A stretch of 64,000 nucleotides of DNA, from the NCBI GenBank assembly GCA_963666425.2, contig OY762825.2, positions 1,152,001 through 1,216,000 of the forward strand. The letters run 5' to 3'. The translations under genes were made by a program, and so were the position numbers. Under the pieces are notes generated by a model that saw only the letters and a program-made list of their open reading frames with translations, was not told the DNA's origin and did no database searches. This DNA comes from Bacillota bacterium (GTDB lineage Bacteria > Bacillota > JAAYKD01). Of the stretch, positions 1-15,812 are shown piece after piece (the first letter of the stretch is position 1; each line of letters starts with the position of its first letter).

Positions 1-696
1 CGCCGGATAAAACCCCACCCGATAAGCCACTCTTTGCGAAGCGAGGTTGCAGGCATCCACATCGTAGGTCGGTACAAAGCCGCGCTGCAGCAATTCCTGT
101 GTCAAATCGCTGATCAGATAAGCCGCCAATCCCAAGCCCCGGTAGGCGGGCAAGACGGTAATGCCCAGCTGCCTGATCTTATCCCATGGATCGCAAGCGC
201 CTGCCATCGCCACAATCTGACCTTCTTGTTTTGCCAGTAAGACCAATTCAGTTTGATAAGGGTGTTTCCGGTTATAAATCAAAGCGTTGTCAAAACCAGC
301 AAATCCCAGCAGAGAAGGAATTTCATCCTGCTCAATCCATTCATAAGAGAAGCCAACCGGCGCTGTAATTGACTTTAACTTGGACAAATCGGGCAAATAG
401 TGCAGATAATATCCCCTGATGATTGGCAGAGAAAAGATTGTATCTCTGTCCTTGCCTTGCATCAAGGCTTTGGCGATAGCCAGCCGTTCTGCGCTGGCCG
501 ATACCACAATGGATTTGCCCATCGATAAAAGATCAAAGGAGCGTTCGCCGAGCGTCTGTCGCCTGCGGCCGGGGTTCTCTTTTGCTTCGACAAAAATTAC
601 GCTGTCTTGTTCGCCATTCAGATCATCCACTGTGCAATTAAGGTCAATTGCCAATTGGATCTGCAACAAACGCAGCATTTCTTTATGTGACATCAT
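1..696 (-). CDS. GNAT-family acetyltransferase (3' end runs off the window)
   Basis: Hand translation from ATG 696: MMSHKEMLRLLQIQLAIDLNC...QLGITVLPAYRGLGLAAYLI...NLASQRVAYRVGF; acetyl-CoA motif V-L-P-x-Y-R-G-x-G-L-A and N-x-x-S; AAGGA SD; not in ORF track because no stop in window. Confidence 0.85.
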   Translation of the reverse strand, partial: MMSHKEMLRLLQIQLAIDLNCTVDDLNGEQDSVIFVEAKENPGRRRQTLGERSFDLLSMGKSIVVSASAERLAIAKALMQGKDRDTIFSLPIIRGYYLHYLPDLSKLKSITAPVGFSYEWIEQDEIPSLLGFAGFDNALIYNRKHPYQTELVLLAKQEGQIVAMAGACDPWDKIRQLGITVLPAYRGLGLAAYLISDLTQELLQRGFVPTYDVDACNLASQRVAYRVGFYPA

Positions 697-1037
697 CAAG
701 CTACATCCTTCCAAGCAGTTACACCTTGCTTTATGTACAGGATTATACCGTCAATCTCTTTCATTAGTCATATTATACCACAGGGTGAACAGAATTGGAT
801 AGCCATTTTTAACGCAAAAAGGGCTCCTGACGATGCGAGAGCCCTCTCTTTCCTGCTTCATTGCATTCAAATCCAGTTTGAACTTTCCCTCTTTTTTTCT
901 GTTGTTCTCTTGTTATGGATAAAATGTTGGAGCGATACTTCATTGGAAAGCGATAACAGGAGCCATGTGAAAATAAAAGGGCTAACCGATTTATAAAACC
1001 AGTTAGCCACTGAATTTAGTTAGATTCTTGACCTTTT

Positions 1038-1430
1038 CTATTTACTTAGGCAGAGACAAAACGGATGGCCGGCAGGATCGATCATGGTTCTATAGGCATC
1101 CTTGTTATACTGCGTGCTCGCAAGGGATGCTCCGCACGCTAGCGCATAGGAGACAGCCTTGTCTAAATCCGGTACATTGAGATCCAGATGCATCATCTGT
1201 GTTTGTTTTCCCGTTTCCCATGGCCAAACAGGCGGCATATAATCTTCGACCGTCTGGAAGCCGATTGTTTGAGATTTATCCGGCGATTGAATCGCTGCCC
1301 ATTCTTCGCCATCGTAAAATTTCACCCAATTCAATAGCTTCGCATAGAAATCCGCCAAGGCACTGGAATTACCACTATCGATACAGATAGATCCCATAGA
1401 AATAAGCGATTGTTCCTGGCTCATGATCAT
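1038..1430 (-). CDS. VOC/glyoxalase-like family protein
   Basis: IDS..ALADFYAKLL, PPVWP..QMMHLDL, DPAGHPFCL motifs; start moved to MIM after AAGGAG SD. Confidence 0.85.
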   Translation of the reverse strand: MIMSQEQSLISMGSICIDSGNSSALADFYAKLLNWVKFYDGEEWAAIQSPDKSQTIGFQTVEDYMPPVWPWETGKQTQMMHLDLNVPDLDKAVSYALACGASLASTQYNKDAYRTMIDPAGHPFCLCLSK

Positions 1431-1579
1431 CCAACTCCTTTTTTTGTTTTTATAAATAATCTTATACTTAAAATCAGGACAGCCCAAAGCTCGATTATTC
1501 TTCATTTGGAGTGAAGCCAGCCTGATTCAGTATAGCGGTCCACTAGGGAGTGGTGCTTCTGTTTTTGTTTTTCACGCTA

Positions 1580-2161
1580 CTACTCGAGTTTCTTCTTTAT
1601 GCTTTCCATCGGATTCAGATTCAGATTCAGGCGTTCAATTATCTCGTTCAGCCGTTTTTGTTTGCCTTCTTCTGTTTTTGTGTAGACATACGATGCTGTA
1701 TAAGTTCTGCGCATCGAGCGTGGCATCTTTTCAAAATTCACCCAGGCAGTCTCATAAGGTTTCAGCAAAGCCGAGATTTCGCGGATCTGCTCTTCGGTTA
1801 TCGGATCCGCTTTTGGAGGATTCCAATTCCCGTTATGTTTTGAAATCTCAATTTTCGCCCTACCGAAATCGGTCATTAGGGCTTGGGCTTCGAGTGCCTC
1901 TACAAGGGCTTTATTTTTCTCCGACCATTTACTCGTTTTGCTGCGTTGCTTGAAATACATGATGTATGTCTCAGCATCTACACTCTGCATCTGTCCGTTG
2001 ATCCAACCAAAACATAACGCTTCCTCCAGCGCTTCGGCGGCTTTGATTGATTCGCTATTTTTACTCTTGTTAAAGATCAGCCAGATGCCGTCAGTAGACA
2101 GCGCATTTTCTTGCAGCCAGTCTCTGAATTCTGTCCGGTTCTTAAACAATCGATTATTCAT
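1580..2161 (-). CDS. YdeI/OmpD-associated family protein
   Basis: FRDWL, EALCFGWING, SKWSEKNK, KTEEGKQKRL motifs; start at MNNRLF overlapping upstream stop. Confidence 0.85.
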   Translation of the reverse strand: MNNRLFKNRTEFRDWLQENALSTDGIWLIFNKSKNSESIKAAEALEEALCFGWINGQMQSVDAETYIMYFKQRSKTSKWSEKNKALVEALEAQALMTDFGRAKIEISKHNGNWNPPKADPITEEQIREISALLKPYETAWVNFEKMPRSMRRTYTASYVYTKTEEGKQKRLNEIIERLNLNLNPMESIKKKLE

Positions 2162-2591
2162 GATGACCCTCGAGTTGGTCGAGTGTGAAAGCACCTCCGC
2201 CCGGTCCGTAATGGAAACCGGTCTTGGCGGTGAACTTCAAAACACAGTAATCTGGATCGGTAACGCCTTTGGGGTAATATCTTTCGAATCCTTCGCGCCA
2301 GAGAAAATCTTTCGTTGGCTGATCGGTGCAGATCTGTATCTCACCTGCGAACAAAACACTAATATAATCTTCATGTCGGCAATAATAAACCGAAGCCTTG
2401 GGATTATTCATAAAATATCTGATTTTTCTGGAAGAGGTATTCGTTGAGAAGTACTGCGTCCTCAGGCTGTCGTGCTCAAGGACGAGCATGGCCCGCATGA
2501 CTGGATAACCCTCATCGTTGATAGAAGCCAAATAGGCGATGTCGCTGTTTTTTCTTAATTCCTTTACGGTTGACTTTGCATCTTCAGTCAT
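2154..2591 (-). CDS. Pyridoxamine 5'-phosphate oxidase-like flavin-binding protein
   Basis: LASINDEGYPVMRAM, FSTNTSSRK, NPKASVY, YYPKGVTDPDYCVLKF. Confidence 0.85.
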   Translation of the reverse strand: MTEDAKSTVKELRKNSDIAYLASINDEGYPVMRAMLVLEHDSLRTQYFSTNTSSRKIRYFMNNPKASVYYCRHEDYISVLFAGEIQICTDQPTKDFLWREGFERYYPKGVTDPDYCVLKFTAKTGFHYGPGGGAFTLDQLEGHHE

Positions 2592-2593
2592 AT

Positions 2594-3034
2594 CTAGCTC
2601 TCACTTTCATTAAGATTTATTAAGATACGCCTTAGCGTATTCTCAAAAACAAGTATCTCATCATCTGTGAACCCGGTGTAATAGATCGCATTCATTGCTT
2701 TGGACACGTTATCATATTCGCCGCTTAACAATCGCGCCTGTTCGGTAAGCAGAATGCGTATCTGCCTTCTATCATCTTTGTCAAAAACCCGATTGACCAG
2801 CTTCGCTTGTTCCATACGGTCGAGCATACTGGTAAGAGTTGTTTTTGCCAAACCTGTTTTCCTTGAAAGCTCCGCGATTGGAATGTTGTCTTGCTGCCAT
2901 AAAACATACAGGATACGGCCCTGCGCTCCATTGAACGCATCGATTCCGGCACGGTTCAGCAGCTTTTCAAATATTCTTCCGCTGACTTGCCTGATCTGAG
3001 AGATCAAAAACCCACCATTCGTTTCAGAAACCAA
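2594..3034 (-). CDS. MarR-family transcriptional regulator
   Basis: wHTH ELSRKTGLAKTTLTSMLDRME..DDRRQIRILLT. Confidence 0.9.
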   Translation of the reverse strand: MVSETNGGFLISQIRQVSGRIFEKLLNRAGIDAFNGAQGRILYVLWQQDNIPIAELSRKTGLAKTTLTSMLDRMEQAKLVNRVFDKDDRRQIRILLTEQARLLSGEYDNVSKAMNAIYYTGFTDDEILVFENTLRRILINLNESES

Positions 3035-3055
3035 ATCAACACCACCTTAGATGAA

Positions 3056-3084
3056 ATAATACCATATAGTACTATTAATGTCAA
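3056..3084 (-). promoter_or_regulatory. sigmaA promoter of marR operon with internal palindrome (putative MarR operator)
   Basis: TTGACA-17 nt-TATTAT on minus strand; perfect palindrome ATAGTACTAT at 3066-3075 in the spacer. Confidence 0.7.
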
Positions 3085-3126
3085 TACCTTAATTTATGAT
3101 TTAGTTATAAAAAATTAAAAAAATCA

Positions 3127-3163
3127 CGGCTCTGCTGATTCCATACAGAAATCAGCAGAGCCG
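3127..3163 (-). terminator. Rho-independent terminator after hsdR
   Basis: 14-bp perfect stem CGGCTCTGCTGATT/AATCAGCAGAGCCG followed by a T-run on the minus strand. Confidence 0.7.
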
Positions 3164-3232
3164 CTTGGCACATATGTTTAGGATTGGTTCGGTGATTTAA
3201 GGAAAGGGAGATTATCCAAGGTCATTTCACTT

Positions 3233-6200
3233 TTATGCTGCTACTGCATTTGCGTTGACTCGCTCAATCGCTTTTCGAATTCCTGCCCAAACAGAAAGAT
3301 TTTTAAACACTTCAACAATGCTGCCGCGATCCGTAAAAGGTGATTCCTGCAAAACAGACAGATCTTTCATCAAACCATTATGCACAATGTATTCAACGAT
3401 CTGGTTGACGAAATAGATTTGTCGGCTGTCCAGATTTGCGGTATTGAGATATTCCGCAAATGCTGTCTTGGCTGCATTGCTATCGAGACCGACGATCTCA
3501 CGTACAAATTCTCCCAAGGGCTTTTGACCACATTCCGTTTCATAATCCTGCTTTGTGCCCACCTCGCTCCAGAGGATTTTTTCCAAAGCTTTGACATCTT
3601 CTTTTGTAAGCGGAACATTGGTTTTTAGTTTGGCAATGGCAGCATTGTCCTGATGTTTCCGGATATAAAATTCTGCTTTTGCTTTGTAATTCCTGAGATC
3701 ATCATTCTCCAAATCGGATTCATGCCAGTCTGTTGATAAAATCTCATCCGCAAAATTGGTGGTGTATCTCATATCGCTGTGCGGAATATACTTCATCAGC
3801 CCGCGCAGATTTTCACGAATATGTTCAAACTCATTGATCCCGGCATTTTCCAGATAATCTGTATGCAAAATTTGATGAATCAACTCTGCCTGTGCCCTAA
3901 TCTCGGGAATATTTGCTACACCAGCGACACCGTTGATCCGTTTGAGAAGGTCGCTACGAGCACGAGTGTAATTTTTACCGACCAGATAAGCAAGCTCAAT
4001 TCCATAGATCAGCGCGTCGAAGCGGACGGCGCTTGCTTCATCTTCGTCCGGCAGGATCAACGGGGCCATTTCATTACCAACGATCAAGGTATCTTCATAG
4101 CAAAATGCATCATAGCTTTTTGGTTCGGAATACTGCTCCACAGACTTCAAATGCTGCTTGATCGCGAAATTTTCACGGTTCAATTCCTGTGCCTTGCGTA
4201 CCATGTCGTCTACTAAGCTTTTGCGGAAGGGAATCAATTCTTTCGTCTGGAAAGCAATGTCCTGCAGTTTGAAAACAATCTGCATTTTCAATTGATAAAT
4301 TGCACCCTGCAACGCCAGCATATTGGCTGTAGGCCGCCCTTTATTCATCCGGAAGAATTCAAAGTTGCCGCAGAAATCAAAAATATAAAACTTCTGCTTA
4401 TCTTCTCCATCCAAAAGACCCGGACAGAGACGGGTTCCGCGGCCGATCATCTGCCAGAACTTTGCCTTGCTCATCACCTTTTTGAAAAATACGAGGTTCA
4501 GAATCTCCGGAATATCAATACCGGTATCCAGCATATCTACCGAAATAGCGATCTGCGGCAGTTTGTTCGGCTCGGAAAATTCGTCGATAGCACTCTGTGC
4601 ATACGTCATGTAGTTATCGATAACCTTGGCATAACCGAACAAATTTGGGTACTCCTTACCGAAAATCTCATAAATCTTTTCGGCATGCAGGTGATTCTTG
4701 GCAAAAATGATCGTCTTGCCCAGCTTTTCCCCGTAGTTGATCTTGATTCCATCTGTCATCAGAACCTGTATTACCTGCCGGATAGTATCCTCATTGAAAA
4801 TCCACTCATTCAGGGCTGAGGAAGCAATCGATTCCGGCACTTCGCCGTTTTCATCCTCAAAAGTGTCCTCATAAATTGCCTTGTCTTGCTCGGAAAGATC
4901 ATCGTAGACGATACCCTGCTCGATGAATTTCAATTTCGTCTCCACAGACAGAAAATCCACCAGATAGCCATCGCTGACCGCCTGTGCCAACTCGTAGCCG
5001 TAGGTTGGCACACCATTTTCCAACTCGAATATTTCATAGGTGTTTTTTTCGATATCAATTTTTGGTGTTGCAGTAAGGCCCACCAACGGTGCATCAAAAT
5101 AAGTGAAAATATCACGGTATTTGTTATAGATGGAGCGGTGTGCCTCGTCACAGATCACCAGATCGAAGTGCCCGCAGGTGAAAAGCTTGCCCTCGTCATC
5201 CTTTACAGAGTCAATACAGTTCATCATCGTCTGATAAGTAGAAAAAACGCAGTGGGCGCTGTAATTGTCTTTTTCCTCGCAGAGATTGGTGAGAGACAGA
5301 TCGGGAAGGTAATTGACGAAATTGCGTTTGGCTTGTGTGACCAACGAATTGCGGTCGGCGAGAAACAGGATGTTTTTAATCCAGCCATGCTGCAGCAGCA
5401 CGTCGCACAAAGCAATGACCGTTCTCGTCTTGCCGGAACCGGTGGCCATCACCAGCAGCGCCTTGCGGCGATTGCGTGCGTCAAAGCTGTCGCAAATGGC
5501 CTTGATGGCTGCTTCCTCGTAATAGCGCCCGGCGATGTTCTTATTGACCATTACATACGCGAGACGAGTCCGCAATGACCGTAAATTGAACAATTTTTCC
5601 AGATCACGCTTGGAGTAGATACATGCAACTTTTCGCTCCGGATATAGGTTGTCAACAATACGCGTTTCAAAACCGTTGGTGAGAAAGACAATCGGGCGAC
5701 GGTGATATTTCTGTTCTAATAAATCGGCATAAAGTTTTGCTTGCTGGCGGCCCTTGGCAACATCCACGCACGTACGTTTTGCTTCCACCACCGCAAGCGG
5801 TCTTCCATCGTCTCCATAGAGCACATAATCGGCATAACCTATTTCAGACCAGTTTGGCATGCCGGGCAATTCAACTTCGCTCAGCCAATCATGGCCTTCC
5901 GTCCAACCCGCATCCGCCAGCATGGCATCGATATAGATTTTGCGTGTCTTATATTCTGAAAGCTCCAGCGGCTTGGGCACATAAGTTTGCTGCTGTTCCT
6001 CCCGACGGGCTGTCAGCTCTTCTTTCAGCGCTTTGTTTTCGGCGATGAGTGCTTTCAGATCAACCTCCGGTACTTCAAGAAGAGGAGGTGTAACCATGGC
6101 CGGTTCCGTCTGCAGAAGTGCGGCATCAAACTTACCTTCCACGTAATCTTTTCCATAGCAGTAAGCGACAAAATCAAGGAAAACATACAGGTTTTCCAGG

Positions 6201-6529
6201 CACAGGGCTGCTTGCTCAAGTGTTACCTTTTTACCGCTGTGGACGGCGTTATTGCCCATTTTGCGGATGAAATCCATGCGCCGCCAAATATCGATGCCCA
6301 CAACATCATGGAATTCTTCCGCATTCATCAGATTGACCAACGTATCTTGATACGGCATGACAAGGCTGCCGTCCACGGAATACATCCATTTGACGGCAAA
6401 CTCCATCGCGCGGCGGCAGTTGATAATACTTGCCTCCACATCAAGTTGCAGGATTCGTTCTGCCGACACCGCTACATCCGCAAAGGAGGCAAACTGCGGG
6501 TCGGAGTGAAGAAAATCAAAGTTGGTCAT
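3233..6529 (-). CDS. hsdR: Type I restriction enzyme R subunit (DUF4145-like N-term, EcoEI-type C-term)
   Basis: ADYVL..VEAK nuclease motif, MATGSGKT Walker A, DEAH, LTATP, QMIGRGTR. Confidence 0.95.
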   Translation of the reverse strand: MTNFDFLHSDPQFASFADVAVSAERILQLDVEASIINCRRAMEFAVKWMYSVDGSLVMPYQDTLVNLMNAEEFHDVVGIDIWRRMDFIRKMGNNAVHSGKKVTLEQAALCLENLYVFLDFVAYCYGKDYVEGKFDAALLQTEPAMVTPPLLEVPEVDLKALIAENKALKEELTARREEQQQTYVPKPLELSEYKTRKIYIDAMLADAGWTEGHDWLSEVELPGMPNWSEIGYADYVLYGDDGRPLAVVEAKRTCVDVAKGRQQAKLYADLLEQKYHRRPIVFLTNGFETRIVDNLYPERKVACIYSKRDLEKLFNLRSLRTRLAYVMVNKNIAGRYYEEAAIKAICDSFDARNRRKALLVMATGSGKTRTVIALCDVLLQHGWIKNILFLADRNSLVTQAKRNFVNYLPDLSLTNLCEEKDNYSAHCVFSTYQTMMNCIDSVKDDEGKLFTCGHFDLVICDEAHRSIYNKYRDIFTYFDAPLVGLTATPKIDIEKNTYEIFELENGVPTYGYELAQAVSDGYLVDFLSVETKLKFIEQGIVYDDLSEQDKAIYEDTFEDENGEVPESIASSALNEWIFNEDTIRQVIQVLMTDGIKINYGEKLGKTIIFAKNHLHAEKIYEIFGKEYPNLFGYAKVIDNYMTYAQSAIDEFSEPNKLPQIAISVDMLDTGIDIPEILNLVFFKKVMSKAKFWQMIGRGTRLCPGLLDGEDKQKFYIFDFCGNFEFFRMNKGRPTANMLALQGAIYQLKMQIVFKLQDIAFQTKELIPFRKSLVDDMVRKAQELNRENFAIKQHLKSVEQYSEPKSYDAFCYEDTLIVGNEMAPLILPDEDEASAVRFDALIYGIELAYLVGKNYTRARSDLLKRINGVAGVANIPEIRAQAELIHQILHTDYLENAGINEFEHIRENLRGLMKYIPHSDMRYTTNFADEILSTDWHESDLENDDLRNYKAKAEFYIRKHQDNAAIAKLKTNVPLTKEDVKALEKILWSEVGTKQDYETECGQKPLGEFVREIVGLDSNAAKTAFAEYLNTANLDSRQIYFVNQIVEYIVHNGLMKDLSVLQESPFTDRGSIVEVFKNLSVWAGIRKAIERVNANAVAA

Positions 6530-6541
6530 GACAAAGTTACC

Positions 6542-7072
6542 TCAATCTTTCAAGAAAAAATCAGGATTATCGTTAAATGCAGTTATTAACCAAGGCTGAG
6601 CATTAAATCCGACAATCATTTCCTTGGTGAATGGATCGATATCCGTTATTTGTCCTGGTTGATATATATAACCTATCTGAGTTAAATATAATGCATTACC
6701 ATCATTCATATCCAGACGAATTTGTTTATGATCATTCAATAAAAGCTGCCTTATGTATTCTTTTTGTTTATTGTCTAGAGATTTGAACATCTTCTTAAAT
6801 GATCTTATGGTTCTACACCGCTTTAGCCGTTTTGAACCAGAAGAAATGAGAATTTGGAGAACAATAATAAGCGTGAGAAATACACAAAACAAAAACAACA
6901 CCGAAATACACAACATCCAGTTTTCCGGTATATTGGCAAGATGCAACCTTTGGAGCATATCTTCAGGCATGAACAGTATAAAGCTTGACACGATACCAAT
7001 AGAAACAACAACTGGACTTATTTTTTTCAAATGTTCAAATAACTTATCAAGATGAACATCTATTTTCAACAC
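6542..7072 (-). CDS. Two-TM membrane protein resembling superinfection exclusion B (SieB) family
   Basis: Two N-terminal hydrophobic helices (ILFMPEDMLQRLHL between them), basic linker, then SLDNKQKEYI..LDMNDGNALYLTQIGYI wHTH-like tail; GGAGG SD; AT-rich. Confidence 0.6.
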   Translation of the reverse strand: MLKIDVHLDKLFEHLKKISPVVVSIGIVSSFILFMPEDMLQRLHLANIPENWMLCISVLFLFCVFLTLIIVLQILISSGSKRLKRCRTIRSFKKMFKSLDNKQKEYIRQLLLNDHKQIRLDMNDGNALYLTQIGYIYQPGQITDIDPFTKEMIVGFNAQPWLITAFNDNPDFFLKD

Positions 7073-7092
7073 AATTGCCTCCCCAAAACATT

Positions 7093-7155
7093 CTAAATCT
7101 GTGATTTCAGTATCATGCGAACTTCAGAATGGATTAAAAAATCAAAATTGGTCAT
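7093..7155 (-). pseudogene. Remnant duplicate of the hsdR 5' end (MTNFDFLIHSE...)
   Basis: AAGGTG SD then ATGACCAATTTTGATTTTTTA versus hsdR ATGACCAACTTTGATTTTCTT; first 7 aa identical. Confidence 0.7.
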
Positions 7156-7173
7156 GTCAGCACCTTGTCAGTA

Positions 7174-7908
7174 TTAGAAAATGGTTTTTATTACTTGTTC
7201 CGTTCCGCTAATTAACTCTTCAACCTCATCCTTATTGGGTTCTCGTTCTTTGCTGTGATCGCACAGATTTCGAATATCTCCCAATCTTTGTACTCTTCTC
7301 CATTCAACTGTATCGTATACATTATCTTTTAATGCATCATTGAAATCAGTTATTGTTGGATTCTTTTTTTTAGTAACAATCTCTCTAGTATGACACACTC
7401 CAGAAAAATGCTTTTCTAATACTACTCCACATATTGCACCAGCAGCTCTAAGAAAGCCCATTTTGAGCAGATGCTTTGCCGTTTCAATTTCCGAGTCGAA
7501 AATATCAGCTTGGAGTACTACTTGTATACTGTAAATCTTGCTATCGAATTTATCTAAACATGCTTGCAGCATTTTCACCTGTCGAAGCACATTAAGTGCT
7601 GCTGTCCACGGTCCATATAAGTCCCTTGTATGATGGATTCCCCGTAATGCATCTGAAATACTGTATGTCCCAAAATTAATCTCTTTCCGTTTAGGATTAG
7701 AATAAAGCAGTATAAAATCTTGAGTACGGTCTGGAATTAGCTGTTTTATAAGAACCAGTGCTTTTGTATACCATTCTTCATAATTCAAAATAAAAAAGCC
7801 AAAATCCTTACACTTAGATTTATCAATTCTTTCAAGCGAATAGTAAAGCTTATCTCCATGATCAATTAACTTCTGGATTTCATTTTTTAGCTCGGTATAT
7901 TCTTTCAT
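7174..7908 (-). CDS. HEPN/DUF4145-like domain protein (putative RNase effector)
   Basis: C-terminal AKHLLK..LRAAGAICGVVLEKH and RNLCDH (RxxxxH) motif; AT-rich. Confidence 0.65.
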   Translation of the reverse strand: MKEYTELKNEIQKLIDHGDKLYYSLERIDKSKCKDFGFFILNYEEWYTKALVLIKQLIPDRTQDFILLYSNPKRKEINFGTYSISDALRGIHHTRDLYGPWTAALNVLRQVKMLQACLDKFDSKIYSIQVVLQADIFDSEIETAKHLLKMGFLRAAGAICGVVLEKHFSGVCHTREIVTKKKNPTITDFNDALKDNVYDTVEWRRVQRLGDIRNLCDHSKEREPNKDEVEELISGTEQVIKTIF

Positions 7909-7919
7909 GCGTTCTCACC

Positions 7920-9083
7920 TCACCCAAAATACTGTTGCATGAGTGCTTTTTTTAGTGTCTCAAGCTTTTCCAGGCTCATTTGAATTTCAAGTTTTGATTT
8001 GTCGATTTGTTTGACGAAGTCAGAAAATTGCTCTTGTAGTCCCAACGGAGGTAGAATAATCATGTAGTCTTCAATTTGTGCGCTGCTTACATTTGGTTGA
8101 AGCGAATTACCACTCATTCTATCTACATAATCCTTAAAGTCATCAGTTCTACACAGAACTTCAAGAAATATTGGCGTAATGCCTCTTTTCATTTGAAATC
8201 TTCCAACTCGTTGATTCAATAAGCATGGCAAATCTCTGCTTGAAACTTTTGCAATTTTCACTGAATTAAGTGACTTAATTATAGGACGAGTCATTGCCAT
8301 AACTAAATCGCCATCTTGCAATGCAAATTCTTGATACTTTGTGAGATATTCCTGCGGTACAGAATTGACAACGTCCCAATTAATAAAATCCTTGTTCACA
8401 TTGCCAATTTGAACGAGTGGAACACCTTCGTCAACAAAAGCCTTACTCATAAAAGCATATCCGCCTTGCAGTCTTGCATAATCACCCAACTGAACTACAG
8501 GATAATCAAATTGATTATTATTTACCGTACCGAAAATCTCGACAAACCGGGATTTGATGAGGTCTTCCAGTTTAGCAAGCTGTTGCTTGCGGAGGGAAAT
8601 GAGATTGATTATTTTTCTAAATGCAGCAGCGATTCTCTTCTGTTCATCCAAAGGTGGAAGTGGTATTTCGATGTTTTCAACAATACCTTTTGATATTTCT
8701 TTGAATGTGGCTCCGCGTCCTAATGAGTTAAGACAATCCGTGTTCCCTTTCAGGAAAAAATACAAATACTCATTAAAAACACGATCTGAGCAAATTAGGT
8801 TTTTGAAGCCTTGATTGCAGCACATTTTGCATCCTGCTATAGCCGTTTTTCCAATAGGAGCGCGGGAAGATAAAATCACGGTTCCCGCAGGAAATGGGTG
8901 TAGCCCTGTTTTTCTCTTTCCTTCTTCTGTAATATGGCGTGAAGAGTCAAAAATGTAAAACGAATCATCTGATAATTCAGCGGGCGTAATCCATTTTATA
9001 TCTCCATCCCAGTATTCATTCATGTTCGTTTTTGGAGTAGAGCCAGATATGACCTTACATACATCCCCCAATTTCGCCATCAT
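7920..9083 (-). CDS. hsdS: Type I R-M specificity subunit (two TRDs)
   Basis: KLGDVC, IPLPPLDEQKRI, LPPLGLQEQF, KKALMQQYFG conserved regions. Confidence 0.95.
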   Translation of the reverse strand: MMAKLGDVCKVISGSTPKTNMNEYWDGDIKWITPAELSDDSFYIFDSSRHITEEGKRKTGLHPFPAGTVILSSRAPIGKTAIAGCKMCCNQGFKNLICSDRVFNEYLYFFLKGNTDCLNSLGRGATFKEISKGIVENIEIPLPPLDEQKRIAAAFRKIINLISLRKQQLAKLEDLIKSRFVEIFGTVNNNQFDYPVVQLGDYARLQGGYAFMSKAFVDEGVPLVQIGNVNKDFINWDVVNSVPQEYLTKYQEFALQDGDLVMAMTRPIIKSLNSVKIAKVSSRDLPCLLNQRVGRFQMKRGITPIFLEVLCRTDDFKDYVDRMSGNSLQPNVSSAQIEDYMIILPPLGLQEQFSDFVKQIDKSKLEIQMSLEKLETLKKALMQQYFG

Positions 9084-10579
9084 ACCATCTCCTTCAGTTC
9101 TGCCAAGCTCTTAATAATTTCCTTTTCGATCTCATGCAGGTCTGCCATGATTTCCTTCGTTGAGAGGTACTCCGTCTTAACATAGTCCGTCTTTTTATAT
9201 TTGTTAATGGAAAGGTCATAATCGTTCCCGACGATTTCAGCTTTCGGCACCAGAAAGGATTTTTCTGTTCTGGCACGGTCGGCTTCCTCATCCCTGTTTT
9301 TAAAACGCTCAATAATGTCGGGAATGTCGTTGTTATCCGGTGTAAGTGTCCGTTTGTCATCTAGGCTCATACCATCAGCAGTCATATTATAGAACCACAC
9401 GTTATCCGTGCCGCCATGGCCGGTCTTCGTAAATACTAAAATTCCGGTGGAAACGCCGGCATAAGGCTTGAACACGCCGGAAGGCATGGAAATGACTGCT
9501 TCCAGTCGATTACCCTCAATTAGCTCCTTACGGATAGCCTTATGCGCTGTGGAGGATCCAAACAGCACGCCGTCTGGTACGATGCAGGCACAGCGACCGC
9601 CCACCTTCAACATGCGCAAGAAAAGCGCCAAAAATAGCAGCTCGGTTTTCTTTGTCTTGCAAACTTTCAGAAGGTCAGTGGAAACCGTATCGGAATCCAA
9701 GCTGCCCTTGAACGGTGGATTGGCGAGGATCAGAGAATATCGTTCTCTATCTGGGTTCTGATCGGACAGGCTGTCGCGGTACTCTATAAACGGATTATCT
9801 ACGCCATGCGTCATCATGTTCATGGCGCCGATACGAAGCATCGTCCGATCCATGTCGTAGCCATGAAACATGTGGTTCATGTAGTGGCCTTTTTTTTGCT
9901 TGTCGAAGAAAATTTCTTCTTTGTAATGCTCTTTTAGGTATTCAGCAGCGGTCACCAGGAAGCCAGACGTGCCACAGGCGGGATCGCAGATTACATCGTC
10001 CGGTCGCGGTGCAAGCAGTTCCACCATCATACGGATAACGTGACGTGGTGTGCGGAACTGACCGTTCATACCGGAGGTGGAAATTTTAGAAAGCAGATAT
10101 TCGTAGACATCGCCACGCACATCCGATTCTTTCATGGCGGACATTTGGCGATAGATTTCATCCAGAGCGTCCACAATCTTGGAGAGCATCAGCGGTGTTG
10201 GGATTTTGAAAATAGCGTCATCCATATATTTGGAATAGGCGCTTTCTTTGTTCCCATGCAGATTTTTAATGAATGGGAACACTAGTTCTTGTACGACCGA
10301 GTACATTTTACCTGCCGGAAAATCGTGAAACACCGACCATTTGAGCTGGTTGCCGTCTACCCGGCGATCGCCAATCTGCACCTCATTGGCAAAAATGCTT
10401 TCAAAAGAAAGCCCCAGCATAGCACTCTCCTTAGCGCGCAGGTTGTCTGTGTCATCCAAGTCACGGATGAACATGAGATAGGTCATCTGCTCCACTACAT
10501 CCAACGGATTGGTCAGCCCACCGGTCCAGAACATTTCCCAAAGGCTATCGATTCGATTTTTCAGTTCGCCTGTTATCAT
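9080..10579 (-). CDS. hsdM: Type I R-M N6-adenine methyltransferase
   Basis: GQFRTPR, DPACGTSGFL, NPPF motifs. Confidence 0.95.
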   Translation of the reverse strand: MITGELKNRIDSLWEMFWTGGLTNPLDVVEQMTYLMFIRDLDDTDNLRAKESAMLGLSFESIFANEVQIGDRRVDGNQLKWSVFHDFPAGKMYSVVQELVFPFIKNLHGNKESAYSKYMDDAIFKIPTPLMLSKIVDALDEIYRQMSAMKESDVRGDVYEYLLSKISTSGMNGQFRTPRHVIRMMVELLAPRPDDVICDPACGTSGFLVTAAEYLKEHYKEEIFFDKQKKGHYMNHMFHGYDMDRTMLRIGAMNMMTHGVDNPFIEYRDSLSDQNPDRERYSLILANPPFKGSLDSDTVSTDLLKVCKTKKTELLFLALFLRMLKVGGRCACIVPDGVLFGSSTAHKAIRKELIEGNRLEAVISMPSGVFKPYAGVSTGILVFTKTGHGGTDNVWFYNMTADGMSLDDKRTLTPDNNDIPDIIERFKNRDEEADRARTEKSFLVPKAEIVGNDYDLSINKYKKTDYVKTEYLSTKEIMADLHEIEKEIIKSLAELKEMV

Positions 10580-11638
10580 TTATTCTTTCTCCCTATTCCA
10601 TGTATAGGAGGCGTAGCGCCCCCCACTGAGCTTAATGATTTCATCGCTTTTCAGCAGGTTATTCAGGGCCCGTTGGATGGTAACCTGACTGATGTCCGGG
10701 CATTTTTGCATGATTTCTGTTTTGGTGATTTTGCCAAGCGTCCCTTTAATGATCTCCCGAACACGATCCGCTTTGGAAAGATTACTGGTTGTCAGAAGCT
10801 GCATACGGGAAGAAAATTCCCGATATGCCGCAACAATCACGCCTAGCATATATCGCACAAATGGCATATAGTCATTTTTTTCTTCGTGCCAGCCTTCGGA
10901 ACTTTGCTGCAGAGTTTCATAATAGGTTTCTCGTGACATCTCGATCAGCTTTTCAATACTGATATATTTGCTAACGTTATAGCCACCGCGATAGAGTAAA
11001 AGCAGTGTCAGAAGACGACTCATGCGGCCGTTGCCATCGTTGAAGGGGTGAATGCAAAGAAAATCCAGAATAAACACTGGAATGAGCAGTAACGGATCGT
11101 ATTCGGCATTTTTGCTGGCTTCTTCCAGCGCAACGCAGAGCTGTTCCATCGCCTCTGTCGTCTCCCACGCTGGCACTGGTTGGAACCTGATGAACTTATT
11201 CCCTTGTGCATCTTCTTCCGCAATCACATTATCGGCGCTTTTATAAGAACCGCCGGTGCTTTTTCCGCTGAATTTATAGAGATCGCGGTGCAGCTGCAGG
11301 ATCATGGACGGTTTTGGTGGGATGAAGTCATGGCTTTCGTGAATCGTGGCAAGCACATCGCGGTAGCCGGCAATTTCCTCTTCGTTTCTGGTTTTCGGCA
11401 TTGTTTTATCACTGATAATTTTCTTCAATCGTTCGTTGGAAGTCGAGATGCCTTCGATTTTATTGGACGCCTCGGCACTCTGAATTTTCGCGACCTCAAC
11501 GAGTTGCGTCAATGTGTCGCTTTGAGCTTCAATAAATTGATTCTGCTCTCCCTTGAATTCATGGATTTGCACCAGAAGCGCAACGGTTTCTGGAGTAAGC
11601 AAAGCATGATATATCTTGTCATAATTGTATTTCCGCAT
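10580..11638 (-). CDS. Fic-family protein (class II, N-terminal inhibitory motif, C-terminal wHTH)
   Basis: HPFNDGNGRMSR catalytic motif; SNKIEG inhibitory motif; stop directly abuts hsdM ATG. Confidence 0.9.
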   Translation of the reverse strand: MRKYNYDKIYHALLTPETVALLVQIHEFKGEQNQFIEAQSDTLTQLVEVAKIQSAEASNKIEGISTSNERLKKIISDKTMPKTRNEEEIAGYRDVLATIHESHDFIPPKPSMILQLHRDLYKFSGKSTGGSYKSADNVIAEEDAQGNKFIRFQPVPAWETTEAMEQLCVALEEASKNAEYDPLLLIPVFILDFLCIHPFNDGNGRMSRLLTLLLLYRGGYNVSKYISIEKLIEMSRETYYETLQQSSEGWHEEKNDYMPFVRYMLGVIVAAYREFSSRMQLLTTSNLSKADRVREIIKGTLGKITKTEIMQKCPDISQVTIQRALNNLLKSDEIIKLSGGRYASYTWNREKE

Positions 11639-11844
11639 AGTATTACCTCAGTTCAAAATCAACTTGCTCATACGTTTCATATTGATGCAATTACAGAATA
11701 TCTCCATTTTCATCAAAAGTCAAGATCAATTTGATCATTATTTTCTTATATGAGTAAATTGATATGCGCGGTGATGCAACAACGCCGCCCGAGAGAATTA
11801 CTCCCTTAGGCGGCGCCGTTATTGAGGTTAGCTTCAAGTGATCT

Positions 11845-12230
11845 GTACACCGTGATTGTTCTGCACCGACTTGAAAAAGTTCTTCGCAATTTCGCTCTTG
11901 CTGTCATAATCCACGGACAAAGAAAAATACCTTTGATTTTTCAATAAAGCCGCTTTTCACTAGCTCGGTTGTCACGAATCCGCTCAAGCAGCTCATCAAA
12001 GTAGTCGGCACCGAATTCTTTCGGGCTTCGTAGGCGCTCATCATTCAGGACAAAGCTTATCTTCATGTACTAACTGAGAATGTCATTGGCTCATCTGCAA
12101 AGATGAACACCGATGTTGCTGGAACGTAAACAAAGAAAAAATCATATCAAGACTGTAACAATCCGTTTCTCTGGAGATCTCATCCCCGGTGGCTTTATCA
12201 CGCCGGAATATCCAGAAATGCTATCTTGGA
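11845..12230 (-). pseudogene. RhuM-family (virulence RhuM) pseudogene
   Basis: Hand translation: YSLDMIF..., FVLNDERLRSPKEFGADYFDELLERIRDNRASEKRLY*, SVDYDSKSEIAKNFFKSVQN with several stops/frameshifts; ends approximate. Confidence 0.8.
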
Positions 12231-12311
12231 GCCTTGTTTGCTATAGCATTTTCAACTAATTATTCAATATTGTTCTTTATATAATAAGCACGTGGTTATC
12301 GTCCTAAGTTA

Positions 12312-15300
12312 CTATTTAAAAACTAATTTTATGTCATCCAAATTGTAGTATTCAATCCCACCTTTTCTAGCTCTAATACTCGGCGGAATCAGTTCTATCA
12401 ACTCCTGTCTTGTATGTACGCCCGGTAAAACATAATATGTTCTATCGTAACCTAAAAATAAAATACTCCAACCTTCTCTAACCCCCTGAACATATGTATC
12501 ATCTTTCCCAATGTAATCTTTGAGTTTGAGTTCGTCATCTTCCGTAATATCTCTGGGTGCAACATATTCAAACAGAGCATAGTCTATATATTCTTCTCTC
12601 GCTAATCTTATATAGGTGTTCAATTCAAATAAGCTGAAGTAATTCTGAATCTTTTCAACACGTCCAATCAAGCAAAGCGGTTTTCCAAAACGCTCCTTAT
12701 TATGTGATGATATACCGATTTTCGGGTTCACAAGAGCTGGCTCAATAATGCCCATTCCATATAACCCGTTTCCGATTTTTGAGATTATTTTTATCCGTCT
12801 CTCGTCTAGAGAATAATTATCTTCCCTTTCTCGCTCTTTTATTTTACTAAATAGCCTCTCAGGCACTACCGGCCACAAACTAGTAACCAAATCATATTGC
12901 TCAAAACGCCCTTCCCATTTATCTGCCTTTAATACATATTGAACATGACGCAATAACGTTCTATCTTCTTTTAGCGCAACCGATGGCGGGAAAAATAGAT
13001 TTGACTTAATATTTATGCTTTCGTCCAAAACTCCAATTGCTTCAGCTGCGAACGCTTTTCCAAAAAATAATTGTCTTGCTACATCATCCAGCTGCCTAAT
13101 ATCAATATTTTTAAATGTTACATCGGGGAGTCTTACTAACTCACTTAGAGAGTTTGTTTTTTGATCGATTAAATTCACTTTGTCTAGCTTCATTGAGCCG
13201 TACTCTGTAGCTGATAATTGCTGAAGTATATCACCAGAAAATTCCTCAAACTCGTATAATAGAATGTTGATCGTCAGTTGAGCCTCGGCTGAATCGGCTC
13301 CAATCTTTTCCTCTCTTAAATATGCCACTACAACTTCTACGACTTTAATTATTAGTTTATCGACAAGTTTTTTTAGGATCTCGGTAAGGTCTTCCGAAAA
13401 ACCTACTATATTGTTTCGGTCAACAGACAATACGGGCCTTTTTTCTCCAATGAAATTCAATATGACACTAGAGTTCTGAGACAAACTATACCCTAGTAGT
13501 GCATATTTTTTTAAATGCACGGAATTTTCATTTACGACAACCCCGTCGACTAAAATTGTTAGTTGACTAGTTTTCCATAAATACCTAGAAAAACTAAAAA
13601 CATAACGATTTAGTACGGGAATGCCCTTTTGAGGCAAACAAATAAATGTGTGTAGCTGAACACCGTCAAATCCTACACAAATTGGTATATCTTTGATAAA
13701 ATTGCGGCATGTTATAACATCTTTATATTGATTTTCGTTATCATTTTCTAAATTGTATCGCCCAAAAGCTGTTGCAAATGCAGCGACATTTGTATTTGGA
13801 TATTTCCTAAAATCAAAAATTTCATTAAATGGAATAATCGGGTGTGATTTATCGTTTTCGTCGTATACGCAGACTTCAATATCGGGGTCAGGAATGCCTA
13901 TTTGCTTGTTCACTTTCCAGAAAAGGCTGCTTTCAAATTCTTTATAGCTTGATTTATCAAATGTTTCATCGTACCTGCTGTTATTCCCTGCAAAAATAAA
14001 ATAATACAAATCCTTTGGAATGATACAATTGATTATTTCAGAAGTCTTTCCGTTAAGGAAAATTTTTACTAGTGTACCATGTTCGCCTATGCGCTCATTA
14101 TCAAGTTCGTTGATAGGTATATGATAAAATCGCTCATTAGCCCCTTCTATTACAAAGGACAATGGTATAATAGCATTTTCATAGTGCTTTGTAGTTATTT
14201 CAAGTGCATCACCTAACATAAAGCATGAAAGAATACCTATTCCGAATTGGGATGTTGGGTTTACCGCATTTGACCAATTGGCATTTTTCCTAATAAAATC
14301 GCGAGATTTATAGTATGAATTGCCAATGTGCAAAAGGTGATTTTTTACAATATCCATCGTCATGCCTGTTCCATTATCTAAGCAATAAATATATGTTCGA
14401 CCATTGCTGTCGGTTGACAATCCAAAGGATATTTTATAATTACTAAATACACTTCTTGTTATGTCGATTGCTTTCATACATTTGCATGCATCGAGCGAGT
14501 TTTGGTAAAGTTCTCGCAAACAAAGGTATTCATCTTTATAAAGTTGTGCACCCGCCAAAAGACCGAGAATTTTAGATTGCTCCAAGGTAAACTTTGCATC
14601 GTTTTCAGGTATAAATATTGATGTATCAGCATCAATTCCTGTTCTATCCGCAGCTATCGCAATTTTAATATCATAGTTCTCCCGATTAGGTATATCATCA
14701 TATTCTAATCGCTGTAGAAATTTAAAGTATAGCGCAATCTCATCGTCAACAGAGTCCAAATAATCCTGTAAAAAATAGTAAGTATCCGGCGATGAACAAT
14801 ATGCTTTAAATTTTATGGTTGTCTTGGAATTGGTATTGCTAAATTCATAATGTGTTTCCTCGAATTTTGACTTCCAATGCTTATAACTTACTGGGTCAGT
14901 AATTTTCTTTTCGGCAAACAGCGACATGGGTGCTCTATCCGAAGAAAAATGAATAATATCGCCAAGTCTTAACATAATTGCTACAAATTGAACATTCACC
15001 TTACCAAGAGAATCTATTTCATAGTCAAAATCTAACTTTTTGACATCAACGGCTTCATCCCCATGCGCTTTACAAACTTTGGCTAAGACGTTCAGATACT
15101 TATCTGCAGTAGATTTTTTTAGCAACGCTCTGAATCTTTTACGCATATTGCCAATAAATTCAACAATACGTTTATTATGTGTTGTTCTAATGAAGTCACA
15201 CCTAATTAGATTGCTATAATTGAGATAATCATAGCTATCTAATTTTTTGTTTCTTAATTGATCTGAAAACCCGTTTCGAAATTCTTCATAAGACCGTACA

Positions 15301-15812
15301 CGTTTCGCTAAATCAAGTTGTAGTTCGGCTTCGTTCTCGGGAGCAAAAATAAAACTCTCCACATTGCTGTATTTCACATATATATAGCGTTTATTCTCAT
15401 CGATAATTTTCTCTATTTCAATTAAAGACTGAACCGGCTTAAAATCGTTCTTAATGCAAGGTTTCACATCCCGATTATAATGTTCCTCACATCCTTCAAA
15501 AGCTTTTAATAAATCGTATTCCCATTTAGGGAGCGCCATTGCAGCATCATGAAAAAAGCAACTTGAATATATTAGTATAGCTTCAAGGAATGATAAATCG
15601 GCCATTTTAACTCCAAGAAGGTTTTCAATATTTTCTAAAACCTTTTCGGAGTGATTAGCGTCGTGTATATCAAAATTATTCAATTGAGCAGTTATTTGAG
15701 ATAAATGGGTTTTGCAATCTTCAATAGCGTCTTTTAATGTTGACCACAATGTAGCCTTTGCCTCATTGCCATCTATTTTCAATTTTTCTTCTATGAAATC
15801 ATCTAACTTCAT
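12312..15812 (-). CDS. HD-domain + HSP90-like (GHKL) ATPase multidomain protein, putative defence/conflict protein
   Basis: N-term HDANHS..FFHDAAM..RTTH..KAHG..RLGD; central RELYQNSLDA, DNGTGM, SQFGIGILSCF, HGTLV; long uncharacterised C-term; AT-rich. Confidence 0.8.
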   Translation of the reverse strand: MKLDDFIEEKLKIDGNEAKATLWSTLKDAIEDCKTHLSQITAQLNNFDIHDANHSEKVLENIENLLGVKMADLSFLEAILIYSSCFFHDAAMALPKWEYDLLKAFEGCEEHYNRDVKPCIKNDFKPVQSLIEIEKIIDENKRYIYVKYSNVESFIFAPENEAELQLDLAKRVRSYEEFRNGFSDQLRNKKLDSYDYLNYSNLIRCDFIRTTHNKRIVEFIGNMRKRFRALLKKSTADKYLNVLAKVCKAHGDEAVDVKKLDFDYEIDSLGKVNVQFVAIMLRLGDIIHFSSDRAPMSLFAEKKITDPVSYKHWKSKFEETHYEFSNTNSKTTIKFKAYCSSPDTYYFLQDYLDSVDDEIALYFKFLQRLEYDDIPNRENYDIKIAIAADRTGIDADTSIFIPENDAKFTLEQSKILGLLAGAQLYKDEYLCLRELYQNSLDACKCMKAIDITRSVFSNYKISFGLSTDSNGRTYIYCLDNGTGMTMDIVKNHLLHIGNSYYKSRDFIRKNANWSNAVNPTSQFGIGILSCFMLGDALEITTKHYENAIIPLSFVIEGANERFYHIPINELDNERIGEHGTLVKIFLNGKTSEIINCIIPKDLYYFIFAGNNSRYDETFDKSSYKEFESSLFWKVNKQIGIPDPDIEVCVYDENDKSHPIIPFNEIFDFRKYPNTNVAAFATAFGRYNLENDNENQYKDVITCRNFIKDIPICVGFDGVQLHTFICLPQKGIPVLNRYVFSFSRYLWKTSQLTILVDGVVVNENSVHLKKYALLGYSLSQNSSVILNFIGEKRPVLSVDRNNIVGFSEDLTEILKKLVDKLIIKVVEVVVAYLREEKIGADSAEAQLTINILLYEFEEFSGDILQQLSATEYGSMKLDKVNLIDQKTNSLSELVRLPDVTFKNIDIRQLDDVARQLFFGKAFAAEAIGVLDESINIKSNLFFPPSVALKEDRTLLRHVQYVLKADKWEGRFEQYDLVTSLWPVVPERLFSKIKEREREDNYSLDERRIKIISKIGNGLYGMGIIEPALVNPKIGISSHNKERFGKPLCLIGRVEKIQNYFSLFELNTYIRLAREEYIDYALFEYVAPRDITEDDELKLKDYIGKDDTYVQGVREGWSILFLGYDRTYYVLPGVHTRQELIELIPPSIRARKGGIEYYNLDDIKLVFK

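Follow-up and report, generated by a model that had tools for sequence, protein, structure and literature searches.

A HEPN protein and a SieB-family membrane protein as probable independent passengers of a type I restriction-modification operon

We analysed a 64,000-nucleotide stretch of DNA from a Bacillota bacterium (contig OY762825.2, positions 1,152,001 to 1,216,000; hereafter the window, meaning this whole stretch), which contains a type I restriction-modification (R-M) operon with two additional genes between hsdS and hsdR. The first encodes a 244-residue HEPN protein (passenger 1) and the second a 176-residue SieB-family membrane protein (passenger 2). An earlier note on this DNA, made from the letters alone, had put the two genes forward as a possible pair and as a strong candidate for an undescribed layered defence module. 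We favour, with a probability of about 0.6, a different arrangement, in which two independent single-gene passengers of the abortive-infection type reside in a type I R-M operon that was acquired horizontally and offers exchangeable cargo slots.

Results

Two additional genes split a complete type I R-M operon

The operon consists of one gene string on the minus strand (3126-11638), running fic-hsdM-hsdS-[HEPN]-[SieB-family]-hsdR, and no hairpin comparable to its closing terminator was found between fic and hsdR (Table 1). The type I system is complete, with full-length PADLOC matches to MTase_I (1-499), Specificity_I (3-386) and REase_I (3-1070). The HEPN gene begins with an ATG located 11 nt past the hsdS stop and preceded by the ribosome-binding site AGGTGAG, the SieB-family open reading frame (ORF) uses a GTG start with GGGGAGG upstream, and hsdR starts 12 nt past the SieB-family stop. 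The GC content is 0.33-0.38 over positions ~6400-8600, covering hsdS and both passengers, versus 0.45-0.51 in hsdM and hsdR; hsdS itself is AT-rich, like both passengers. The earlier note had thus correctly described two intact, AT-rich and co-oriented genes, and the gene order bears out its placement of them at the position occupied by prrC in other operons, between hsdS and hsdR. Both genes are flanked by hsd genes on the same strand and the slot between these varies among relatives, the pattern on which guilt-by-embedding rests. We rejected a pseudogene or a chance ORF for either passenger, given the many full-length relatives and the confident structural models. The Fic-encoding gene at the head of the operon also precedes hsdM in three related loci (L003, L005, L007).

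Table 1. Features of the type I R-M operon and its two passengers (positions in the window)
Feature	Position	Strand	Evidence
fic (SoFic-like), first gene of the operon	10580..11638	-	Pfam Fic 5.3e-14; PADLOC SoFic 1.8e-39
hsdM, type I methyltransferase	9080..10579	-	Pfam N6_Mtase 1.4e-63; PADLOC MTase_I 2.3e-180
hsdS, specificity subunit	7920..9083	-	Pfam Methylase_S 1.7e-46, two stretches
Passenger 1, HEPN protein, 244 aa, predicted RNase	7174..7908	-	Model; fold search; family of 2,429 clusters
RNLCDH codons (R213-H218), HEPN Rx4H motif	7255..7272	-	Invariant R, N, C and H in 49 sequences
Remnant of the hsdR 5' end, read as scar of SieB cassette insertion	7093..7155	-	Ribosome-binding site, ATG, MTNFDFLIHSE..., stop after 20 codons
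Passenger 2, SieB-family inner-membrane protein, 176 aa	6542..7072	-	Pfam SieB; PHROG; model
hsdR, restriction subunit with N-terminal DUF4145 (HEPN-like)	3233..6529	-	DUF4145 2e-13; ResIII 1.9e-36; EcoEI_R_C 1.7e-19; PADLOC REase_I 8.4e-158
Intrinsic-terminator-like hairpin, 17 pairs then T run, closing the operon	3126..3164	-	

Passenger 1 is a HEPN protein without an ATPase domain

To characterize passenger 1, we relied on an AlphaFold model built on an alignment of 49 relatives (predicted local distance difference test score, pLDDT, 89.4). The model divides the protein into an N-terminal four-helix bundle (residues 1-125), for which generic four-helix matches were the only ones returned (Z up to 8.5), and a C-terminal domain with helices 126-149, 153-174, 200-217 and 226-242 and an insert (175-199) between its helices 2 and 3. 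Residues 126-244 match solved HEPN proteins, led by 2hsb (Z 14.1, root-mean-square deviation 2.5, 115 aligned residues), 1ufb (Z 11.7) and 1wol (Z 10.9), and the same list contains, at lower ranks, Csm6, MNT-associated HEPN toxins, AbiA-CTD, AbiV and HepS. HEPN proteins also rank first in Foldseek, at E 0.046 or weaker, and the family profile found nothing significant among the sequences of solved structures (best E 0.11). The fold proposed in the earlier note is therefore borne out by the model, although Pfam HEPN stays below its threshold.

The RxxxxH motif noted earlier is equally well supported. R-N-x3-H (RNLCDH, residues 213-218) sits at the end of helix 3, with the polar N214 following R213, and the acidic E165 lies within helix 2; R213, N214, C216, H218 and E165 are invariant across the 49 relatives, down to 44% identity. 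According to the accessible part of a comparative survey (PMC3710099), HEPN RNases carry Rx4-6H at the end of helix 3, a polar residue after the arginine, an acidic residue in helix 2 and an insert between helices 2 and 3. The location of the motif, E165 and the insert of passenger 1 match this description.

Profile searches returned little for the 244-residue protein. No Pfam HEPN-clan model reaches its threshold, DUF4145 (PF13643) gave no match at E<=0.1, and PADLOC, NCBIfam and PHROGs offered nothing useful; indeed, neither passenger matches a PADLOC v2.0.0 model at E<=0.1, and NCBIfam likewise contains nothing for them. As the earlier note had stated, no ABC-ATPase domain is present, and no other ATPase family was detected in Pfam or NCBIfam. 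Passenger 1 is thus a genuine HEPN protein without an ATPase domain, from a family that matches no Pfam or PADLOC model consistently. A HEPN-MNT toxin-antitoxin pair was considered and rejected, since no nucleotidyltransferase gene adjoins.

The HEPN family is widespread and mostly located outside R-M operons

Of 2,630 candidates returned by a word-indexed protein search, 2,429 clusters (90% identity) qualified as HEPN relatives at E<=0.001. The 120 top-ranking clusters are 236-260 residues long and 56-100% identical to passenger 1; the named ones are called 'hypothetical protein', and a precomputed PF05168 label is attached to 3 of the 120. When 49 members were scanned singly, 11 matched PF05168 and 4 matched PF13643 (DUF4145) at E<=0.01, and none of the PADLOC models was matched consistently. 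Remote relatives on plasmids, which show ~31% identity in the C-terminal half, bear DUF4145 or HEPN domain annotations, and in a protein atlas the query falls among 'hypothetical protein' clusters with DUF4145/HEPN clusters nearby. A tblastn search of phage records with passenger 1 gave no match.

We next surveyed the genomic contexts of the family, taking one genome per species. Relatives occur in 261 species genomes, which span many bacterial phyla and include one archaeon, and all counts below refer to the best 80 of these 261 loci, around which Hsd and SieB proteins were sought within about 7 kb using the window's own proteins as queries. With these queries, Hsd genes were present at 12 of the 80 loci, and 68 had none within ~7 kb. 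Other systems adjoin even relatives that are 57-59% identical to passenger 1: the neighbour is an SLFN-type helicase in L011 and L012 and a type IIG enzyme in L013. Relatives at a greater distance adjoin AbiV, Shedu, PtuA-like, AriA/OLD-like, PifA-like, QatD, Fic, type II/III R-M, integrase and transposase genes, and a minority have plain housekeeping neighbours. Homologs beside integrases or transposases were seen at six loci (L018, L029, L038, L044, L059, L073). Cargo next to the HEPN gene in sister loci matches the PADLOC candidate models PDC-S47, PDC-S04, PDC-S16 and PDC-S06.

A recognised defence or R-M gene is the immediate neighbour at 30 of the 80 loci, a raw count obtained from 29 PADLOC neighbours (E<=1e-8) by removing 5 housekeeping look-alikes (L014, L021, L035, L039, L041) and adding 6 Hsd neighbours. 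The expectation of the earlier note that homologs are enriched in R-M or defence loci is not contradicted, as far as a raw count goes; most homologs, however, lie outside R-M operons. In sum, the distribution of the family is that of a mobile, stand-alone gene of defence islands, for which the prrC position of type I operons has been a repeated but not the only place of settlement.

As a separate observation, the relatives in L011 and L012 (~5127-7732; 58-59% identity) directly follow a gene for an SLFN-group-3 helicase (PADLOC PDC-S41/AbiO/Nhi-like), with overlapping or nearly abutting ends. Helicase and HEPN gene possibly form a two-gene arrangement of their own.

Passenger 2 belongs to the SieB family

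Passenger 2 matches Pfam SieB (PF14163) with 65.5 bits over residues 24-146, well above the gathering threshold of 26, and the PHROG 'SieB superinfection exclusion' with E 0.0011; a relative that is 50% identical (P0122) scores 55.4 bits on PF14163. The structural model (pLDDT 94.1) displays two long helices, 8-34 and 50-97, whose hydrophobic parts (~18-36 and 52-77) are predicted to span the membrane. A basic cluster, KRLKRCRTIRSFKK, follows the second hydrophobic helix and leads into a compact alpha/beta domain (99-176) that is predicted to be cytoplasmic. The SieB-like protein with two transmembrane segments proposed in the earlier note is thereby recovered in both profile and model.

Among viral structures, the best match of the model was a protein of phage P22 encoded in the N operon region (Q38660; E 6e-3, template-modelling score 0.45), which we take to be SieB itself. 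Phage SieB has an internal Esc product. Against solved structures the best Z was 7.5; the C-terminal domain of the model resembles winged-helix domains (Orc1/Cdc6, FAN1, CzrA, TubR), a mere lead at Z 6.2-7.3, which is in the range of chance matches. Exhaustive HMMER searching collected 199 representatives at E<=0.001, nearly all 165-200 residues long; the word-indexed search had returned one other cluster.

SieB-family genes recur in type I and type III R-M operons

For scans of SieB loci we used a 10-sequence alignment, a 40-sequence alignment being too diverse. Of 401 genomes sampled evenly from the window's phylum, 3 exceeded the PF14163 cut-off, the window's own included. One of the other two hits (G182) lies immediately before mod in a type III R-M locus, and the second is a fragment beside a housekeeping gene. 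In a sample of the class to which locus L003 belongs, SieB matches were found in 4 of 399 scored genomes. Of the three stronger ones, one again lies directly upstream of a type III mod, one in a defence-island-like setting with a Cap4-type nuclease and ATPases, and one beside an integrase and a transposase. The type III loci share a common layout: in both L089 (G182; 7722-13818) and L110 (G432; 1-3423) the SieB-family gene is directly upstream of mod, and a small insert (RhuM or GNAT) separates mod from res. An apparently split DUF4391 gene precedes the SieB-family gene in L089.

A metagenome scan added at least nine SieB loci, and every one listed is part of a type I operon in the same family as that of the window (HsdM 72-76% and HsdR ~72% identical). 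Seven of them (L092-L097, L099) are near-identical operons in which a decayed SieB-like gene, bearing an internal deletion of the membrane part and a frameshift, lies directly upstream of hsdR, behind NERD and DUF3990 (ART-like) genes. In the remaining two, L091 (1285-7803) and L098 (6001-10570), a SieB-like gene and a caspase-like (Peptidase_C14) gene are located upstream of hsdM; the SieB-like gene is intact in L091 and apparently frameshifted in L098, and L091 also carries an AbiJ_NTD4 gene between hsdM and hsdS. Taken together, R-M operons hold 11 of the 14 other SieB loci examined (9 in type I operons of the same family, 2 in type III operons), or about 5 of 8 independent contexts. Passenger 2 itself lies inside a chromosomal R-M operon and not in a prophage, and a scan of viral contigs for SieB-like relatives gave 69 pattern matches, none of which was confirmed.

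A duplicated hsdR start separates the two passengers

Inspecting the region between the two passengers, we found that 18 nt past the HEPN stop the sequence AGGTG...ATGACCAATTTTGATTTTTT encodes a peptide (MTNFDFLIHSE) that closely resembles the N-terminus encoded at the true hsdR start, ATGACCAACTTTGATTTTCT (MTNFDFLHSD). This segment is a duplicated hsdR start complete with ribosome-binding site, ATG and ~12 recognisable codons. A 20-nt pattern covering both copies occurs twice in the 64 kb of the window versus 0.01 expected, and none of 100 shuffles reached two occurrences. Together with its ribosome-binding site, the remnant aligns with three sister operons (L004, L005, L010) at the junction where hsdR directly follows the HEPN gene, which points to an ancestor of the order hsdS-HEPN-hsdR into whose first ~40 nt of hsdR the SieB cassette recombined. 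As judged from the sequence, the cassette would have brought along or restored a complete hsdR start. A search of 11 related loci did not reveal the remnant in any of them.

Comparison with eight Clostridia-type sister operons revealed that the slot between the HEPN gene and hsdR is variable. It is occupied by AbiH in three operons (L002, L003, L008), by Abi_alpha/PDC-S47 in one (L007) and by an unknown 278-residue gene in another (L001), and it is empty in the three with direct junctions. Conversely, no SieB relative was found at any of the 80 HEPN loci and no HEPN relative at any of the 13 SieB loci tested. The pairing of the HEPN protein with the membrane protein that the earlier note had entertained thus finds no counterpart in co-occurrence, and the hsdR remnant lies between the two genes.

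The present arrangement is stable and shared by a ~98%-identical strain, as a contig from a second study spans positions 5800-9300 with 74 differences and no gaps. The contigs of four sequencing runs, two of them fragmented and with uncovered parts, contained no form without the SieB cassette. In two runs (X1, X3), we additionally observed a second contig (3,984 nt in X3) that shares only ~20 nt with the window at 6539-6558 and 9248-9268 and otherwise differs; it may represent another hsd allele or another organism.

The operon is accessory, as a same-genus genome (97% complete) has no such hsdR when searched with the window query and the nearest ones in the order are 44-45% identical. The window's order and class comprise only 10 species genomes in the collection searched, so that searches confined to them say little. 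The operon has its closest relatives in gut metagenome-assembled genomes (MAGs) of the Clostridia type, which is consistent with its horizontal acquisition.

A further gene of the neighbourhood lies just upstream of the R-M operon (12312-15812, minus strand). Its 1,166-residue product combines an HD-CE domain (PF24391, 8.6e-39) with an Hsp90/MORC-like HATPase_c_3 domain. The gene has a GC content of 0.33-0.38 and no PADLOC match, and may be a further defence gene of this island that is missing from the catalogues.

Discussion

The reading of two independent passengers is built on features observed directly at the locus and its relatives: the gene structure, the folds, the conservation of the motif, the separability of the two genes, the insertion scar and the variable slot. 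How the two proteins would act is suggested by what is known of their families. For passenger 1, the C-terminal HEPN domain, with R213, N214 and H218 together with E165 on helix 2, is predicted to be a metal-independent RNase, and the protein is probably dimeric, as other HEPN RNases are. The N-terminal four-helix domain would keep it inactive and may sense a phage cue. Once triggered, it should cut cellular RNA (tRNA, rRNA or mRNA), so that translation stops and the infection is aborted. Passenger 2, with its two-helix membrane anchor and cytoplasmic domain, is predicted by family analogy to abort the development of the infecting phage at the membrane. Its cassette would have arrived later than the HEPN gene, through recombination at the start of hsdR. 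By the same analogy, RNase activity, trigger, dimerisation and anti-phage phenotype are expected rather than observed properties.

Several points weigh against this reading. Passenger 1 scores 18.5 bits on Pfam HEPN (PF05168; E 0.0024), below the 22-bit threshold, and helical folds inflate Z-scores such that values under ~13 are unreliable for helical bundles. The context counts come from the best 80 of 261 loci at one genome per species, and the 30 of 80 with a defence or R-M neighbour is a raw number given without a background rate. No antitoxin-like partner is evident for passenger 1, which leaves the silencing of a free HEPN RNase unexplained. The HEPN gene lies downstream of hsdS and on the same strand in all 11 loci where hsdS was seen, directly adjacent in 8. 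These loci represent two type I families from Clostridia-type and Bacteroidia MAGs, with L034, L064 and L074 being of the Bacteroidia type and of a different family. If the gene were functionally linked to the R-M enzyme, as prrC is, such a constant position would be expected.

This last point bears directly on a PrrC-like guard, an alternative that we consider doubtful though worth taking seriously, in which the HEPN RNase, and perhaps the SieB-like protein too, is silenced by the assembled type I enzyme and fires when an anti-restriction protein disables it. Its location matches that of prrC, it is operonic with hsdS at a distance of 11 nt, its orientation behind hsdS is conserved in both type I families, and the same model has been proposed for R-M-linked HEPN clades in the accessible part of PMC3710099. 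Moreover, the HEPN-like DUF4145 at the N-terminus of HsdR could in principle pair with the free HEPN protein. However, the first 650 residues of the HsdR of L074 contain HSDR_N but lack DUF4145, so a HEPN-HsdR heterodimer cannot be general, and when the HEPN family profile was compared with the HsdR N-terminus, the motif region alone aligned, at a non-significant E of 0.21. Passenger 1 also lacks an ATPase or any other known coupling domain, and close relatives stand beside unrelated systems. That 68 of the 80 homolog loci have no Hsd genes nearby, most homologs thus lying outside R-M operons, weakens the case for a dedicated guard of R-M. Taking the idea one step further, a coupled multi-effector machine, which strikes us as distinctly unlikely, would have the HEPN protein docked on the R-M complex, for example on the HEPN-like domain of HsdR, with the SieB-like protein wired in as well, so that an anti-restriction protein, by disabling restriction, releases both effectors. 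The fixed HEPN position in two type I families, together with the 11 of 14 SieB loci in R-M operons, supports this possibility. If true, it would extend the principle known from PrrC both to a compact RNase without an ATPase and to an effector in the membrane.

Two further explanations concern the nature of the cargo. HEPN toxins are common in toxin-antitoxin systems (PMC3632139, in the part accessible), the operon is accessory and several homologs sit beside integrases or transposases, all of which would suit an addiction module, that is, a HEPN toxin that mainly stabilises a mobile R-M operon or regulates growth under stress instead of defending against phages; yet no antitoxin candidate, MNT or other, adjoins in the window or in the sister operons, and the neighbours of the family are mostly defence genes and not plasmid-maintenance genes, making this explanation highly unlikely. 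That the HEPN and SieB-like proteins constitute one two-gene system, such as a membrane sensor with a cytoplasmic RNase effector, we regard as extremely unlikely. The genes are adjacent, co-oriented and AT-rich within the same operon, and a second strain has kept this arrangement; against this, their co-occurrence is confined to this genome lineage, the hsdR-start remnant between them marks a separate arrival, and the corresponding slot of sister operons holds AbiH, Abi_alpha or nothing. Two independent passengers remain our preferred reading of the locus.

If passenger 1 proves to act against phages as an RNase on its own, its family would be a widespread addition to the known single-gene defences, one that has no name in Pfam or in PADLOC v2. 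The remnant of the hsdR start represents a concrete footprint of cargo swapping in R-M operons. Neither passenger changes the established picture of R-M operons as hosts of abortive-infection genes.

This picture is set out in several earlier studies, cited here for the parts that were accessible. At least 16 distinct HEPN clades have been linked to R-M, with an analogy to PrrC proposed as early as 2013 (PMC3710099), and systematic mining of BREX, DISARM and type I R-M loci has yielded 17,432 embedded genes (Payne et al. 2024, bioRxiv 10.1101/2024.01.29.577857). According to these two sources, the concept of R-M-embedded abortive-infection cargo is already known, and the description of the locus in the earlier note as an undescribed layered defence module is not supported. 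Both passengers display the same arrangement as the 'guilt-by-embedding' defence genes of the latter study and the PDC candidates of PADLOC, differing from these in that neither matches PADLOC v2.0.0. Judging by the 2025 copy of Pfam and by PADLOC v2.0.0, neither this HEPN family nor the occurrence of SieB-family genes as R-M-embedded cargo has been catalogued; among the matches listed by a narrow literature search, no title or abstract opening addressed SieB in R-M operons.

Among known systems, passenger 1 is most readily compared with PrrC, the E. coli anticodon nuclease of the type IC R-M system EcoprrI, whose gene, like that of the predicted RNase described here, is located between hsdS and hsdR. 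In the accessible parts of the literature, PrrC is reviewed as a guardian of R-M (PMC12707154) and serves as the model of a suicidal back-up to restriction (PMC12707154, PMC3632139), and the coupling of immunity to suicide is stated as a general idea (PMC3632139). The two proteins differ at the N-terminus, where PrrC, like RloC, has an ABC-type NTPase and passenger 1 a 125-residue four-helix bundle, and in their genomic distribution, as PrrC is described as embedded almost exclusively in type I R-M (bioRxiv 10.1101/2024.01.29.577857) and the family of passenger 1 is so in 12 of 80 loci. With the R-M-linked HEPN clades, including DUF4145-like ones (Anantharaman et al. 2013, PMC3710099), passenger 1 shares the fold, the Rx4-6H motif and the logic of the neighbourhood; this comparison refers to the general description of these clades, and passenger 1 differs in that no Pfam HEPN-clan model passes its threshold on it. 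The single-gene HEPN defences HEC-08, AbiV and HepS likewise combine a stand-alone HEPN domain with an extra domain. Mutating the motif histidine abolishes the defence conferred by HEC-08, as reported in the accessible part of bioRxiv 10.1101/2024.01.29.577857, and the accessory domain of HEC-08 differs from that of passenger 1, being DUF3644 with zinc ribbons. AbiV (9bj5, Z 8.4) and HepS (9oik, Z 7.3) appear in the fold list of passenger 1 at values within the chance range for helical folds, and the PADLOC models of these single-gene defences gave no sequence match to it. Passenger 2, finally, resembles SieB of phages lambda and P22 in its Pfam membership (PF14163), its two N-terminal membrane helices and its length, and differs in residing in a chromosomal R-M operon and not in a prophage, with its phage likeness being at the PHROG level only (E 0.0011). 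That the family recurs in R-M operons of types I and III suggests a further role for SieB, known classically for exclusion by prophages, as defence cargo of chromosomes.

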